Sequence record: OQ561750
Length of the DNA: 64,000 nucleotides
Source: Escherichia phage LHE83
Direction: 5' to 3' (one strand)
This document shows, piece by piece, positions 33,930 through 38,737 of this stretch. The translations under genes and the position numbers were made by a program. The notes beneath the pieces were generated by a model. That model was not told the DNA's origin and searched no databases. It saw only the letters and a list, made by a program, of their open reading frames with translations. Every line of letters begins with the position of its first letter. Position 1 is the first letter of the stretch.

Positions 33930-34457
33930 ATGAAATTTTTAACTCCCATTTATCTAACCTTAATGCACGCCTTCGCTGAACGCGCCATTGAACGTTTAGA
34001 CTCAGACCAATACACCTGGTATGAACCCGCTTCAAGAATGCAAGAGTTTGGTACTCTGAGACTTGACGGTGGGCGACAAACAGGTAAAACAAGTGCCATT
34101 GCGCAGTTTGCTGCGGATTGGGTTTCCAAGGGTAATGATGTGATTGTTATGTCGAGTTCTTCGCATCGCTCGCGAGAAATTTGTAATGTAATAAAACAGG
34201 TTTCTAAGGCACACCCACATCTCCAAGTCGAAGGTCCTGGTTTTGTTGTCTATGATACTGTGCGCAGTTTCCTTGATGAAGACAATTTCCATAAGTATCG
34301 TGGACTATCTGTTACTCGATTATTGATTATTATCGAAGAGCCAATGCGCCTTCCAGCGATGGATAAGTTCTATGAAGCTTACCAGGTAATGATTAATAAA
34401 TTTATGTGCCAAGGCGACAAGCCTTTGCCTCTGTTCTTTGTGATAGGAATGCAATGA
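33930..34457 (+). CDS. Small P-loop NTPase-like protein (175 aa)
   Basis: Walker A-like GGRQTGKTS and Walker B-like LLIIIEEP. Confidence 0.45.
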   Translation: MKFLTPIYLTLMHAFAERAIERLDSDQYTWYEPASRMQEFGTLRLDGGRQTGKTSAIAQFAADWVSKGNDVIVMSSSSHRSREICNVIKQVSKAHPHLQVEGPGFVVYDTVRSFLDEDNFHKYRGLSVTRLLIIIEEPMRLPAMDKFYEAYQVMINKFMCQGDKPLPLFFVIGMQ

Positions 34458-34750: not shown

Positions 34751-34961
34751 ATTGTCAATTGAAGGCTCTGATGAAGCTCTGAAGATGTTTGTTGATTGGT
34801 TCCACGAACAGGGCGAACAAGGCTTTTTGGAATGTTGGAATGGTGGACAATGGAACGGTAAAGAAACCGTTTATCCGAGCACATATATCTCTGTTCGTGG
34901 CGGACCCAACGGCCTTCGTTTAGTGGAATACGATATCGCAACTGGTGAGGAAGTAAAATGA
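34743..34961 (+). CDS. Hypothetical protein (72 aa)
   Basis: Overlapping start; compact array. Confidence 0.4.
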   Translation: MSKLSIEGSDEALKMFVDWFHEQGEQGFLECWNGGQWNGKETVYPSTYISVRGGPNGLRLVEYDIATGEEVK

Positions 34962-35236
34962 TTGAAGATATCAAGGGTTACAAACCACATACCGACGATA
35001 AAATCGGTAAAGTGAATGCTATTAAAGATGCCGAAATTCGGTTAGGGCTGATGTTTAAAGCTCTAGAAGAAGAACATGTTACCTATTATATGAACTTAGA
35101 TACCGAAGAGGTTTCTGAACAAGAACTAGACCAGGCTCATGAACGCATTACCCAGATTCGTAATGCAATTGACCGTCTTAAAGAAGCTAGTATGTGGGCT
35201 TGTCGCTCTGTGTTCCAACCAGAAGAAAAGTACTAA
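34958..35236 (+). CDS. Small helical acidic protein (92 aa)
   Basis: ATGA overlap; predicted helical by composition. Confidence 0.4.
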   Translation: MIEDIKGYKPHTDDKIGKVNAIKDAEIRLGLMFKALEEEHVTYYMNLDTEEVSEQELDQAHERITQIRNAIDRLKEASMWACRSVFQPEEKY

Positions 35237-35240
35237 AGCA

Positions 35241-35269
35241 GTTTACATCTCCTGTAGGTATGATACTAT
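35241..35269 (+). promoter_or_regulatory. Early promoter (GTTTAC-N17-TACTAT) inside 10-bp inverted repeat TCTCCTGTAG/CTACAGGAGA
   Basis: Hexamers plus conserved ACCTATCAA box; 3-prime arm carries SD of regB. Confidence 0.55.
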
Positions 35270-35297
35270 AAACCTATCAACTACAGGAGATTACAAA

Positions 35298-35756
35298 ATG
35301 TCAGAAATTAATTCAGAAGTATTCATCCGCCGCAATAAATTACGTCGTCAGTTCGAAACCGAATTCCGCGAACTGAATGCGTCCATCAAAAAAGCCGCCA
35401 TTAAGAGCGGAGTCCCAGCCTTCTTTATTAAGTACTCTAATCACTTGTTGGACCGTGCTATCCAACGTGAAATCGACGAAAAATACGTTTTTGCTTTATT
35501 CAAGCAACTCCATAACCATGTTAAAGAAATTCATGAATTTTTAATCCAGGAACCTCTGCCTGATGTAGAAGCCGAAATCATTCCTGGTAAAGTGTATCGC
35601 CCATTGCGTCTCGAAATTACCGATAAAACCTTATGGCTAGGTATGACTGTAGATCGTAAACATCCTGATAAAGGATACTCGTTAAAATGTCGTATGGCAT
35701 TTGTTAACTCTAAACGTTTAGAAGGTAAAACCAGCACGAAAGTAATCTATCTTTAA
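35298..35756 (+). CDS. regB: Sequence-specific endoribonuclease RegB
   Basis: 152 aa; EVFIRRNKLRR...HLLDRAIQREIDE...RLEITD...CRMA segments align with T4 RegB. Confidence 0.8.
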   Translation: MSEINSEVFIRRNKLRRQFETEFRELNASIKKAAIKSGVPAFFIKYSNHLLDRAIQREIDEKYVFALFKQLHNHVKEIHEFLIQEPLPDVEAEIIPGKVYRPLRLEITDKTLWLGMTVDRKHPDKGYSLKCRMAFVNSKRLEGKTSTKVIYL

Positions 35757-35768
35757 TAATGAGGTCTC

Positions 35769-36308
35769 ATGAAAAAAGTATTAGCCACTTTACTATTGAC
35801 AGTTAGTATGTCTGCCCATAGCGTAGAGCCTACTTTCAGTAATGAACAACTCGATAATTTACATTATGCGTATGCTTTCGGTGAACAATACCAAAAGTCG
35901 GGAAAGTTCAAAGAAACCCCTAATCAAAAAGGATTAGGATATATCATGGCCGGATTACTATGGCAGGAATCATCCGCCGGAATTAATCAAGGTTTAAATA
36001 AAGATAAGCACCATGCTTATGGCATGTTCCAAAATTACTTGCCTACGTTAAGAAGTCGTGTTCAACAGGTAGGTTGGAAGATGTCTGACAAAGAAATAAT
36101 TCGTATGGTCCAAAAACGACAGAACAGTGCCTCTTGGGCCTACATTGAACTGTCTTATTGGATTGATGTTCACAAAGGTGACCTGAGAAAAGCGATTGCT
36201 TCTTATAATGCGGGCTGGAACGCCAAAGCAGGCAGTAAATATGCTTCTGAAGTTCTAGAAAAGGCCAATTACCTAAAATCTAAAAAGATGTTTGAGGCGG
36301 TGTATTAA
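35769..36308 (+). CDS. Secreted lytic-transglycosylase-like protein (SLT-like motifs)
   Basis: Signal peptide MKKVLATLLLTVSMSAHS; motifs WQESSAG, GMFQ, SYNAGW resembling SLT family 1. Confidence 0.5.
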   Translation: MKKVLATLLLTVSMSAHSVEPTFSNEQLDNLHYAYAFGEQYQKSGKFKETPNQKGLGYIMAGLLWQESSAGINQGLNKDKHHAYGMFQNYLPTLRSRVQQVGWKMSDKEIIRMVQKRQNSASWAYIELSYWIDVHKGDLRKAIASYNAGWNAKAGSKYASEVLEKANYLKSKKMFEAVY

Positions 36309-36665
36309 ATGATTAAGCAGATGACTATAGCGCTTATGTTGATTGCTCCGGGAGTATTAGCGTCACAAGTTGATGATAGTAATAATTCAATTGTCGAGTA
36401 TGCTACCCGTACAGCAAAAGATTATTGTCATCCGAGTAATACTGAATGCATTATCGAATTCAGTTCAAAAATCACAGCTGCTTTTAAAGATGGCCAGAAC
36501 GACGTAGAGCATCGCCGAATGAAAGAGAAAACTCTTTCTAAAAGATACGAGCAACGTCTAAACGTTACTGAATGTATTCCATCTGATAAAAAGTACAAAG
36601 AAATGTGCGCGTCTATGGTAGACAGACTCGTTGATTCATACAACCGAGGATTAAACTCTAAATGA
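36309..36665 (+). CDS. Secreted small protein with signal peptide (118 aa)
   Basis: N-terminus MIKQMTIALMLIAPGVLASQ; TAAATG junction. Confidence 0.45.
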   Translation: MIKQMTIALMLIAPGVLASQVDDSNNSIVEYATRTAKDYCHPSNTECIIEFSSKITAAFKDGQNDVEHRRMKEKTLSKRYEQRLNVTECIPSDKKYKEMCASMVDRLVDSYNRGLNSK

Positions 36666-37129
36666 TTATTGATTATATTAAGGGCGATATCGTCGCCCTG
36701 TTTCTTCAAGGTAATAATGTTGCACACGGGTGCAACTGTTTCCACACAATGGGTTCAGGTGTAGCTGGGCAATTGGCTAAGGCTTATCCGCCTATTCTCG
36801 CTATCGATAAAACTACTTATTTAGGCAATTTGGCAAAACTTGGCACGTTTACTCAAGCTACAGGTAATAATGGCCAAATTTGCTATAATTTATATACCCA
36901 ATACGAACCAGGCCCTAATCTTGATTATGGTGCTTTAGTAAACTGTATGATAGAATTAAACCGTACCGCAAAAGGTCTTTTGTTTAAACCAAGAATTTAT
37001 ATTCCTCGCATTGGTTGTGGTATTGCTGGTGGTGATTGGGACAAGGTTTACCAATTGATTAATTTGTTTACTCCTGATATTAATTTAGTGGTGGTAGATT
37101 ATGAAAGCCCATTACCCGCATCCGTTTGA
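36662..37129 (+). CDS. Macro-domain protein (ADP-ribose binding/processing fold)
   Basis: 155 aa; GDI...NVAHGCNCFHTMGSGVAGQLAKAYP and PRIGCGIAGGDW parallel the GDIT...NAAN...GGGVDGAIHRAAGP and AFPAISTGVYGYP macro motifs (e.g. E. coli YmdB). Confidence 0.55.
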   Translation: MIIDYIKGDIVALFLQGNNVAHGCNCFHTMGSGVAGQLAKAYPPILAIDKTTYLGNLAKLGTFTQATGNNGQICYNLYTQYEPGPNLDYGALVNCMIELNRTAKGLLFKPRIYIPRIGCGIAGGDWDKVYQLINLFTPDINLVVVDYESPLPASV

Positions 37130-37313
37130 CCCTAAAAACAAAGCGGAAATTATTCGACGCTGGACCGAAACACGAGTAACTAAATGCCCTATAAAAAGTC
37201 AACACAACACCGATAAATGGTATATTGGTGAATATGTTGAATATACTTTTATAGATAAAAATAAACGTAAACAGCATGTAGAAGAATATTGCTTAAAGGT
37301 GCAATGGTTATGA
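37101..37313 (+). CDS. Hypothetical basic protein (70 aa)
   Basis: ORF overlapping macro gene 3-prime end in another frame. Confidence 0.35.
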   Translation: MKAHYPHPFDPKNKAEIIRRWTETRVTKCPIKSQHNTDKWYIGEYVEYTFIDKNKRKQHVEEYCLKVQWL

Positions 37314-37483
37314 GTCTGAGTAAAGAACAGAAAGATAAATTGTTTGAGCTTATCCATGAGCTTATGGAACTCAACATAGAATGTGAATTTGATAACTCTC
37401 TGGATTGGGATTGGAGAGGTGGTGAAGAGGATGAGTTTTCTAAAAAGGAAAATGAATTAATTGCTTATGTAAATAGTCTTTAA
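37310..37483 (+). CDS. Hypothetical acidic protein (57 aa)
   Basis: ATGA overlap start. Confidence 0.35.
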   Translation: MSLSKEQKDKLFELIHELMELNIECEFDNSLDWDWRGGEEDEFSKKENELIAYVNSL

Positions 37484-37492
37484 GAAGGTAAT

Positions 37493-38065
37493 ATGGCTCA
37501 ACTTTATTTTCATTATGCGGCGATGAATTCCGGGAAAACCGCTTCATTGCTAACGGCAGCTCATAACTACAAAGAACGTGGTATGGGCGTACTCCTTTTA
37601 AAGCCTGCGATAGACAATAGAGAATCAAGCCATAGCATTTCGTCTCGTATAGGGATTAGTCAAGAGGCTAATGCCGTGACTCCGGATATGGACCTATACG
37701 AGTTCTATCGTTGGGCTGAATCTCAAAAAGATATCCACTGCGTATTTGTGGATGAAGCACAGTTCTTAGAACCTGCACAGATAAAACAACTGGCAAAGAT
37801 AGTAGACAATTATAATGTTCCGGTTATGTGCTATGGGCTAAGAACTGATTTTCAGGGTAAACTGTTTCCTGGCTCTGCTGAATTACTCGCTACGGCAGAT
37901 AAACTCGTTGAGTACAAAGGTGTGTGCCATTGCGGCCGTAAAGCTACTATGACGGCTCGTATCCAAGATGGTATCGCAATTAAGGACGGAGCCCAAGTTT
38001 CTATAGGTGGCAACGATTCTTACGTGTCATTGTGCAGGAAGCACTGGATAGAAATAACGAGTTGA
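37493..38065 (+). CDS. tk: Thymidine kinase
   Basis: 190 aa; P-loop AMNSGKT, VDEAQF, C-terminal zinc ribbon CHCG...C..H. Confidence 0.85.
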   Translation: MAQLYFHYAAMNSGKTASLLTAAHNYKERGMGVLLLKPAIDNRESSHSISSRIGISQEANAVTPDMDLYEFYRWAESQKDIHCVFVDEAQFLEPAQIKQLAKIVDNYNVPVMCYGLRTDFQGKLFPGSAELLATADKLVEYKGVCHCGRKATMTARIQDGIAIKDGAQVSIGGNDSYVSLCRKHWIEITS

Positions 38066-38072
38066 GGGTACT

Positions 38073-38351
38073 ATGGACCTAAATTCAAAGATTTTAATTC
38101 TAGCGTTCGCTGTGGCTATTTCTTATATTGTTCTTTCGCCTATCATGGATGATGTGGCTTACAAAAGAGAGATAGAGGTTGTAGCAGCGACGTATAATGC
38201 TAATAATAAAGAGTGTCCTAATAAAAATGGGATGGATTTAATTAAAGCGCATTATATGCTTTCCATTACCTCGCCTATACAGAGGAATTGGGTTGAATAT
38301 AATTTTAACGACGTGTTCTATTCTTATTGTCGTAAGCTTAAAAAGCTATAA
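38073..38351 (+). CDS. Small membrane protein (92 aa)
   Basis: N-terminal TM helix ILILAFAVAISYIVLSPI. Confidence 0.45.
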   Translation: MDLNSKILILAFAVAISYIVLSPIMDDVAYKREIEVVAATYNANNKECPNKNGMDLIKAHYMLSITSPIQRNWVEYNFNDVFYSYCRKLKKL

Positions 38352-38354
38352 ATA
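38347..38354 (+). promoter_or_regulatory. Possible late promoter TATAAATA
   Basis: Exact octamer overlapping stop of 38073 gene, about 90 nt upstream of 38444; function uncertain. Confidence 0.3.
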
Positions 38355-38443
38355 ATAATACTAACCGTAGAGCTTTAGCTTTTGGTAATCGCTATCGGTT
38401 AAGGCCGAAAGGCAAATAGTATAAAACAACAAAGGACTTTTGT

Positions 38444-38737
38444 ATGGATATTTTCCGTACAGCGGCTTGTATCCTTATGGCGGGATGTTTAAGCCCTACA
38501 GTTTCACTAGCAAATGACACCAACGATAAATTGATGGATGCATTTGCTAGTAGTGCGATGCCTGTTTATGCGCAAATGAGTAGACCTAGCATAAAGGCCT
38601 CCGAAGACTATTGGGCCTACCTTAATGCTTCTTGGAAGGTATCAAGTTGTCAGACTATAGAAGCGTGCTCAATTGAAGGTCGTGCCATCGGAGAGCGTTA
38701 TGCAAAACTAATGAAGGTGGAAGATGAAGTTCAATGA
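38444..38737 (+). CDS. Putative lipoprotein (97 aa)
   Basis: Signal peptide with lipobox-like LMAGC. Confidence 0.45.
   Translation: MDIFRTAACILMAGCLSPTVSLANDTNDKLMDAFASSAMPVYAQMSRPSIKASEDYWAYLNASWKVSSCQTIEACSIEGRAIGERYAKLMKVEDEVQ

Follow-up and report, generated by a model that had tools for sequence, protein, structure and literature searches.

A macrodomain protein encoded between vs and tk.3 in Escherichia phage LHE83: the Dhakavirus ortholog of T4 Tk.4 and a probable eraser of DarT2-placed ADP-ribose

The window considered here is the whole 64,000-nucleotide stretch of DNA from Escherichia phage LHE83 (sequence record OQ561750) that was analysed, and its subject is a gene for a single-domain macrodomain protein of 155 amino acids. 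The open reading frame (ORF) occupies 36662..37129 of the + strand including the stop, and runs from an ATG at 36662 to a TGA at 37127-37129. It has exactly the position, strand and quoted sequence given in an earlier, sequence-only reading of this DNA. The neighbours of the gene in the window are regB, vs.1, vs, tk.3 (DUF7202), tk.2 (DUF7438), tk, rI and rI.-1. A setting between regB/vs and tk had been proposed in that reading, and it is borne out by Pfam matches and by the annotation of phage QL01. The 2.4 kb around the gene are 97-98.7% identical to Dhakavirus-type T-even phages (QL01, E33, Bp7, IME08), which is the type of phage that the window represents. As tk.4/adfM, a conserved accessory gene of the T-even phages, the gene is known already.

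The protein had been taken for a macro domain on account of two motif segments, and both are present: G8-D9...N18-V-A-H22-G-C-N25-C-F-H-T-M-G-S-G-V-A-G-Q-L-A-K-A-Y-P43 towards the N-terminus and P115-R-I-G-C-G-I-A-G-G-D-W126 towards the C-terminus. The identification stands. The Pfam Macro profile (PF01661) scores the protein at 32.8 bits against a curated gathering cutoff of 22 (E=7.4e-8, profile positions 2-117 of 118), and PHROG 335 is matched at E=1.4e-66. An alignment of 54 phage and metagenome relatives (A1) was the source of both a family profile and an AlphaFold2 model. Against solved macrodomains, the profile scores highest with BT1257 (2e-21), human TARG1 (5e-18) and Streptomyces SCO6735 (3e-17), and it also matches yeast Poa1p (7e-15) and the DarG macrodomains of M. 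tuberculosis (Mtb; 6e-11) and T. aquaticus (Taq; 4e-10). The model has a mean predicted local distance difference test score (pLDDT) of 93.7 and a predicted template modelling (TM) score of 0.88. Its top Foldseek matches are TARG1, Poa1p, BT1257, Mtb DarG and Taq DarG. TARG1 is the best match in the PDB (E=5e-10, TM 0.77/0.85), Poa1p is found at E=1e-9 (TM 0.76) and the DarG macrodomains at E=4e-8 to 2e-7 (TM about 0.73). At E<=0.001 there are 144 PDB matches, and the best 50 of the 144 are nearly all macrodomains, the few exceptions among these 50 being designed serine hydrolases (OSH55 series). Two of the checks that had been suggested, by profile and by structure prediction, point the same way: judged from its sequence and its predicted structure, the 155-amino-acid protein is a genuine macro domain with the three-layer alpha/beta/alpha macro fold.

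The class is another matter. The two segments had been compared with a MacroD-type consensus, and this comparison is sound insofar as loops 1 and 2 occupy analogous positions. However, the protein is ALC1-like. In other words, it belongs with TARG1, DarG, SCO6735 and Poa1p and not with the MacroD class.

On one point, the supposed lack of a macro domain in T4, the sequence-only reading went astray. T4 has tk.4 in the equivalent place. Its product (NP_049723.1) is likewise 155 amino acids long, is annotated in the record as "phosphatase; contains A1pp phosphatase motif" and is 53% identical to the window protein over 155/155 residues (E=1e-62). The T4 gene order (NC_000866) is regB, vs.1, vs, tk.4, tk.3, tk.2, tk.1, tk. 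The order regB-vs.1-vs-tk.4-tk.3-tk.2-tk is common to T4 and the window, the slot between vs and tk.3 is found in QL01 too, and the gene is named tk.4 in Bp7 and IME08. By sequence and position, therefore, the window gene is the Dhakavirus positional ortholog of T4 tk.4, now adfM (anti-DarT factor, macrodomain). The two proteins have in common their length, the vs/tk.3 slot and the H/N/Q active-site pattern described below, and they differ in 47% of their residues, in the C-terminal tail and in the overlap with tk.3 (4 nt in T4, 29 nt here).

What is known of T4 tk.4 gives the gene a probable function. T4 without adfA and adfN keeps its full resistance to DarTG2, from which a further anti-DarT factor was predicted (PMC11825919). 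A preprint of November 2025 describes transposon-insertion sequencing of T4 (HIDEN-SEQ) on a DarTG2 host, in which tk.4 was the single significant hit, with fewer insertion reads (bioRxiv 10.1101/2025.11.20.689424). When tk.4 was cleanly knocked out, T4 was rendered sensitive to DarTG2, and the authors gave the gene the new name adfM. The evidence of the preprint on tk.4 is genetic, with no enzymology and no discussion of active-site residues. The same name, AdfM, was independently given to gp104 of phage PhiKZ, which removes DarT2-placed ADP-ribose from DNA in vitro and whose N23A substitution reduces activity (Cell Reports 2026, PMC13309987). The idea that the phage protein could reverse DarT action, already raised from the sequence, thus agrees with the genetics of the T4 ortholog (bioRxiv 10.1101/2025.11.20.689424). 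In line with this, the window protein has a single NCBIfam match at E<0.01 and a single PADLOC match, and both are to DarG, over the macro part only. It is therefore likely that the window gene, as the tk.4 ortholog, encodes an ALC1-like macrodomain ADP-ribosylglycohydrolase that erases DarT2 marks from thymidine in single-stranded phage DNA. We infer that an ortholog with 53% identity would share the job of the T4 protein, and that it would do so by taking ADP-ribose off DNA enzymatically.

The active-site pattern was read from A1 and from an alignment of 75 sequences comprising the window protein, T4 Tk.4 and 73 bacterial relatives. Invariant in A1 are H22, G23, N25, G33, A35, D49, G61, N76, Y78, T79, Q80, P115, G118, G120 and W126. 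D49, N76, Y78 and Q80 are also invariant in the 75 sequences, and all four lie outside the patterns used in the bacterial searches. H22 and N25 are invariant there as well, the H22-G-C-N25-C26 motif itself being one of the search patterns. This motif (codons 36725..36739, + strand) contains the putative active-site residues H22 and N25, assigned from their invariance, from an alignment with PDB entry 5e3b (SCO6735) and from hhalign with PhiKZ gp104. Glycine-rich loop 1, M30-G-S-G-V-A35 (codons 36749..36766, + strand), would bind the ADP-ribose phosphate; it includes G33 and A35, which are invariant in both alignments, and aligns with TARG1 'MGAGIA'. The predicted catalytic loop, N76-L-Y-T-Q80 (codons 36887..36901, + strand), is placed by the TARG1 and PhiKZ alignments. 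Loop 2, P115-R-I-G-C-G-I-A-G-G-D-W126 (codons 37004..37039, + strand), is the putative diphosphate/distal-ribose binding segment, with P115, G118 and G120 invariant in both alignments. It aligns with TARG1 'PRIGCGLDRLQW', BT1257 'PRIGCGLAGGKW' and SCO6735 'PRIGCGLAGGTW'.

What takes the place of the lysine on which DarG and TARG1 depend? The profile alignment with TARG1 is ungapped over the catalytic loop and puts the family's 'NlYTq' on 'YLITK', so that Q80 falls at the position of K84. In the same alignment A122 stands in place of D125. The TARG1 K84/D125 dyad is Q80/A122 here. The hhalign comparison with PhiKZ gp104 (96% probability, E=1.5e-9) puts N25 on N23 and T79-Q80 on T-K. In the chain numbering of 5e3b, H22 and N25 fall at residues 44 and 47; if the construct carries a tag of 20 residues, as is assumed here, these are H24 and N27 of SCO6735. 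The link from Q80 to Q85 of SCO6735 is indirect, by way of the TARG1 K84 alignment and the equivalence stated in PMC9411070; when a central fragment of the protein was used as a PDB query against SCO6735, loop 2 alone aligned and the Gln region was left without a direct residue alignment. Gln85 of SCO6735 occupies the position of DarG K80 and TARG1 K84, and both Q85A and Q85E abolish activity (PMC9411070). SCO6735 cleaves thymidine-linked ADP-ribose on single-stranded DNA and protects against DarT, and a water-mediated mechanism has been proposed (PMC9411070). The window protein has the same combination of residues as SCO6735, namely a Gln at the catalytic-Lys position together with a His/Asn pair. 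Since Q80 stands where DarG and TARG1 have Lys, with H22 and N25 as in SCO6735, catalysis is probably lysine-independent and water-mediated. As far as alignments go, T4-type AdfM, including the window protein, is Gln-type (SCO6735/BT1257-like), whereas PhiKZ AdfM and DarG are Lys-type.

A sequence of events can be proposed on this basis. The tk.4 ortholog would be made early in infection, most likely co-transcribed and translationally coupled with vs. Host DarTG2 would release DarT2, which would ADP-ribosylate thymidines in single-stranded phage DNA and so block replication. The two glycine-rich loops of the phage macrodomain would bind the ADP-ribose, and H22, N25 and Q80 would serve to hydrolyse the linkage of ribose C1'' to thymine N3, so that normal DNA is restored. 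In effect it would be an orphan antitoxin.

Relatives of the protein are widespread. They were found by tblastn in 2,732 of 50,697 phage records, under the labels hypothetical protein, phosphatase, macro domain protein, Poa1p-like and Tk.4, and Shigella phage PSD9 has a public entry for a protein that is 100% identical. A published survey reported macro domains in 41% of myoviruses (PMC9503650). In bacteria, a scan of one genome per species found relatives at at least 501 loci from many phyla, with 34-43% identity; most are stand-alone proteins of about 150 amino acids.

Could the bacterial relatives be DarG-like antitoxins that sit beside DarT? This was considered at 80 bacterial loci and is unsupported, with no DarT in those examined. 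There is no DarT/DUF4433 among the 25 Pfam families that recur in the 141 ORFs immediately flanking the bacterial relatives, to which the Pfam census was confined. A tblastn search within 4 kb of the 80 loci also found none (best E=2.2), with the limited sensitivity of a single P. aeruginosa DarT2 query. Among the families that do recur in the 141 ORFs are ARH-type ADP-ribosylglycohydrolase (5), NADAR (4) and NAPRTase/NAMPT (4 and 3). Some phages of Acinetobacter and Vibrio have the ortholog beside a gene for nicotinamide phosphoribosyltransferase (NAMPT) or ribose-phosphate pyrophosphokinase. Such NAD/ADP-ribose gene neighbours are a hint that the gene is connected with NAD salvage in the lineages concerned, and they are the one hint obtained towards the other roles raised in the sequence-only reading, the degradation of Thoeris-type signals and action on NAD-derived products.

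Nor is the window protein itself a DarG. It scores 20.4 bits against the 250-bit cutoff of the DarG equivalog NF048014 and covers model positions 3-138 of 338 only. The PADLOC DarG match covers 3-142 of 329, and the protein is macro domain throughout, without a DarT-binding domain. Moreover, Q80 occupies the catalytic-Lys column (Taq DarG K80/TARG1 K84), and this Gln is invariant in the 75 sequences. A tblastn search of the window with the one P. aeruginosa DarT2 query found no darT (best E=0.73), and the genes adjoining the tk.4 ortholog are vs and tk.3. The solved DarG macrodomains (Taq 5M3E, Mtb 5M3I) resemble the protein in fold and in the removal of ADP-ribose from thymidine in single-stranded DNA that is expected of it. 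DarG differs in its length of about 340 amino acids, its C-terminal DarT-binding domain, its catalytic K80 and its adjoining darT. Within the reach of these tests, the family is an orphan enzyme of ADP-ribose processing, comparable with SCO6735, rather than a DarG that was captured.

Several observations count against the removal of DarT2 marks as the function of the window protein. The support from T4 tk.4 is genetic, and the activity of the window protein is a prediction from a sequence only 53% identical to that of the tested T4 protein. The catalytic Lys of DarG and TARG1 is missing, and the mechanism proposed in its place is argued by analogy from the distant SCO6735 (profile E=3e-17). 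The lack of DarT within 4 kb of the 80 bacterial relatives makes an origin of the family as DarG less than obvious. A sigma-70 promoter scan of 34900-38500 found 9 sites where 11.1 are expected by chance, and is uninformative on timing. Lastly, the class also acts on Glu-linked protein ADP-ribose (PMC9411070), on uracil-linked ADP-ribose (uracil-ADPr) in RNA (PMC13036486) and on ADP-ribose-1''-phosphate, so DNA thymidine may not be the sole or main substrate. Perhaps the Tk.4/AdfM family (the T-even proteins and their hundreds of orphan bacterial relatives) is a Gln-type branch that does not come from DarG, with a lysine-independent mechanism like that of SCO6735 and with substrates wider than thymidine-ADPr DNA, for example uracil-ADPr RNA. 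This is a tentative proposal, and we regard it as rather doubtful. If it were true, the phage protein would erase ADP-ribosylation from pyrimidine bases in general and protect against several ADP-ribosyltransferase (ART) toxins, not DarT2 alone. With 53% identity between them, the Dhakavirus and T4 versions could differ in specificity.

Other explanations share the macro domain and differ in what it is for. One keeps DarT2 as the target and makes the protein a toxin binder, which would protect mainly by blocking DarT2 and not by hydrolysis, much as the second activity of DarG, AdfA and AdfB, or catalytically dead SCO6735 do. SCO6735 Q85A still inhibits DarT, and more so than DarG K80A or TARG1 K84A (PMC9411070). 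ICP1 AdfB works by DarT binding, as does RB69 AdfA R164H (PMC11825919), and the T4 genetic data fit toxin binding and hydrolysis alike (bioRxiv 10.1101/2025.11.20.689424). Nevertheless, binding as the main mode is unlikely. The protein has the macro domain only, without the C-terminal DarT-binding domain of DarG, and is matched by the DarG models only over the positions given above. Its active-site residues are invariant in phage and bacterial relatives without a nearby DarT, which argues for selection on catalysis. Another explanation keeps hydrolysis and moves the main substrate away from DNA, to ADP-ribose-1''-phosphate, O-acetyl-ADP-ribose or uracil-ADPr RNA, with a link to NAD/ADP-ribose metabolism or to RNA-targeting ART defences. 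The public labels 'phosphatase', 'Poa1p-like' and 'O-acetyl-ADP-ribose deacetylase' would suit this, although the 'phosphatase' in T4 and RefSeq records is motif transfer only. Yeast Poa1p is a strong match in both fold and sequence (profile E=7e-15). Gene neighbourhoods are suggestive in part: some phage relatives adjoin NAMPT or PRPP synthetase genes, and bacterial relatives recurrently adjoin ARH, NADAR and NAPRTase/NAMPT genes, but the window neighbours of the tk.4 ortholog are not NAD-salvage genes. To our knowledge, T4-type RNA repair (Pnk/Rnl) gives no 2'-phosphate junction and would therefore give no ADP-ribose-1''-phosphate. TARG1, DarG and SCO6735 also strip ADPr from uracil in single-stranded RNA (PMC13036486). 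Against this, the sole phenotype reported for the T4 ortholog is a sensitivity to DarTG2, and DarT2 is a transferase that ADP-ribosylates thymidine in DNA. On balance a main substrate other than DNA seems rather improbable.

The remaining explanations are further from the evidence. That the protein reverses or tunes protein ADP-ribosylation, whether marks made by phage transferases of the Alt/ModA/ModB type or by host protein-targeting ART toxins, is very unlikely. We know of no cleavage by this macro class of the linkage to arginine, the residue that the Alt/Mod enzymes modify. It is true that mono-ADP-ribose linked to Glu in proteins is hydrolysed by TARG1 and SCO6735 (PMC9411070) and that T-even phages carry ADP-ribosyltransferases (PMC9503650). 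However, the accessible preprint text reports the tk.4 phenotype on a DarTG2 host only (bioRxiv 10.1101/2025.11.20.689424). The same text describes tk.4 only as a DarTG2 hit in the HIDEN-SEQ work, and this speaks equally against a role in degrading or sequestering ADP-ribose-derived immune signals, such as Thoeris gcADPR and the like. The ADP-ribose-binding loops are intact, and TIR-associated macro domains are predicted to act on cyclic ADP-ribose (PMC9503650). In the literature searched, no member of this macro class has been shown to do so, and a role of this kind is most improbable.

The removal of DarT2 marks from DNA remains the likely function, and several known proteins can be set beside the window protein as a predicted eraser. 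SCO6735 (PDB 5E3B) is alike in being a stand-alone ALC1-like protein with Gln at the catalytic-Lys position, equivalents of H24 and N27 and a loop 2 of the form PRIGCGLAGGxW. It protects against DarT though it lies outside any DarTG operon (PMC9411070). It is unlike the window protein in its distance (profile E=3e-17), in its N-terminal extension and in being the product of a cellular, DNA-damage-inducible gene tied to antibiotic production. TARG1/OARD1 (4J5R), Poa1p (6LFR) and BT1257 (2FG1/2AFC) are the best structural and profile matches. BT1257 shares the Gln and has a GCGLAGGKW loop, whereas Poa1p is known as an ADP-ribose-1''-phosphate phosphatase. PhiKZ gp104 (PMC13309987) is similar as a stand-alone phage macrodomain that counters DarTG2 and in its N23, which aligns with N25. 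On the other hand, it has only 19-20% identity, carries the DarG-type Lys ('FPTK') and is imported into the phage nucleus. Judging by sequence, PhiKZ and T4-type AdfM are independent macro lineages under one name. Three further phage counter-defences against DarT have unrelated folds, namely AdfN (T4 gp30.3, NADAR), AdfA (T4/RB69 gp61.2) and AdfB (ICP1 gp145). AdfN is an orphan antitoxin-like hydrolase that acts on guanosine-ADPr, the DarT1 product, and not against DarTG2 (PMC11825919); AdfA and AdfB are toxin binders.

Little of this is new: the T4 record already annotates the macro domain, and a role against DarTG2 was described for T4 in 2025. In practice, the gain is one of correct annotation. 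Most records, including that of the 100% identical protein, say "hypothetical protein" or "phosphatase". A modest addition is the Gln-type active site, along with the abundance of orphan bacterial relatives that are not DarT-linked. The name AdfM would thus cover two mechanistically different macro lineages with one target, Gln-type in T4 and its relatives and Lys-type in PhiKZ.

The gene overlaps the genes on either side of it, and the five neighbours listed here are all on the + strand. Upstream are the endoribonuclease gene regB (35298..35756; Pfam REGB_T4 E=8e-69, coordinates mapped from the QL01 annotation), a vs.1 homolog (35769..36308; an ORF corresponding to the 'vs.1 gene product' of QL01) and vs, the valyl-tRNA synthetase modifier (36309..36665; assigned from the sequence and the QL01, Bp7 and T4 annotations). 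Downstream are tk.3 (37101..37313; Pfam DUF7202 E=2.5e-37) and the thymidine kinase gene tk (37493..38065; Pfam TK E=6.8e-57). The TGA stop of vs shares the ATGA at 36662-36665 with the ATG of tk.4. At the other end, tk.3 begins at 37101 and overlaps the last 29 nt of tk.4, an overlap that is annotated likewise in QL01; in T4 it is 4 nt only. The overlap (37101-37129) contains all the codons for PLPASV, the tail at the C-terminus of the macro protein. Two antisense ORFs overlap tk.4 on the minus strand (36428..36745 and 37080..37277) and are without support.

A terminator-like hairpin lies 20 nt inside the tk.4 ORF, at 36681-36699 on the + strand (AGGGCGATATCGTCGCCCT, then a T-rich tail). It is kept in T4 and VIPECOOM01. 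As a functional RNA element it was rejected, being lost without compensating changes in the Gelderlandvirus, Karamvirus and Roskildevirus orthologs, and the encoding of G-D-I-V-A most likely produces it incidentally.

A few observations concern the neighbours themselves. A 175-amino-acid ORF at 33930-34457 (+ strand), Vs.8 in the QL01 annotation, has a P-loop-like GGRQTGKTS motif and no Pfam match at E<=0.01. The vs.1 product has a weak match to SLT transglycosylase (E=0.0078, below the Pfam cutoff). Its N-terminus and that of Vs (MKKVLATLLLTVSMSAHS... and MIKQMTIALMLIAPGVLAS..., respectively) are both signal-peptide-like, which in the case of Vs is surprising in a supposed modifier of a cytoplasmic synthetase. 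The HIDEN-SEQ preprint reports T4 vs as the gene with the strongest conditional requirement in minimal medium (bioRxiv 10.1101/2025.11.20.689424).

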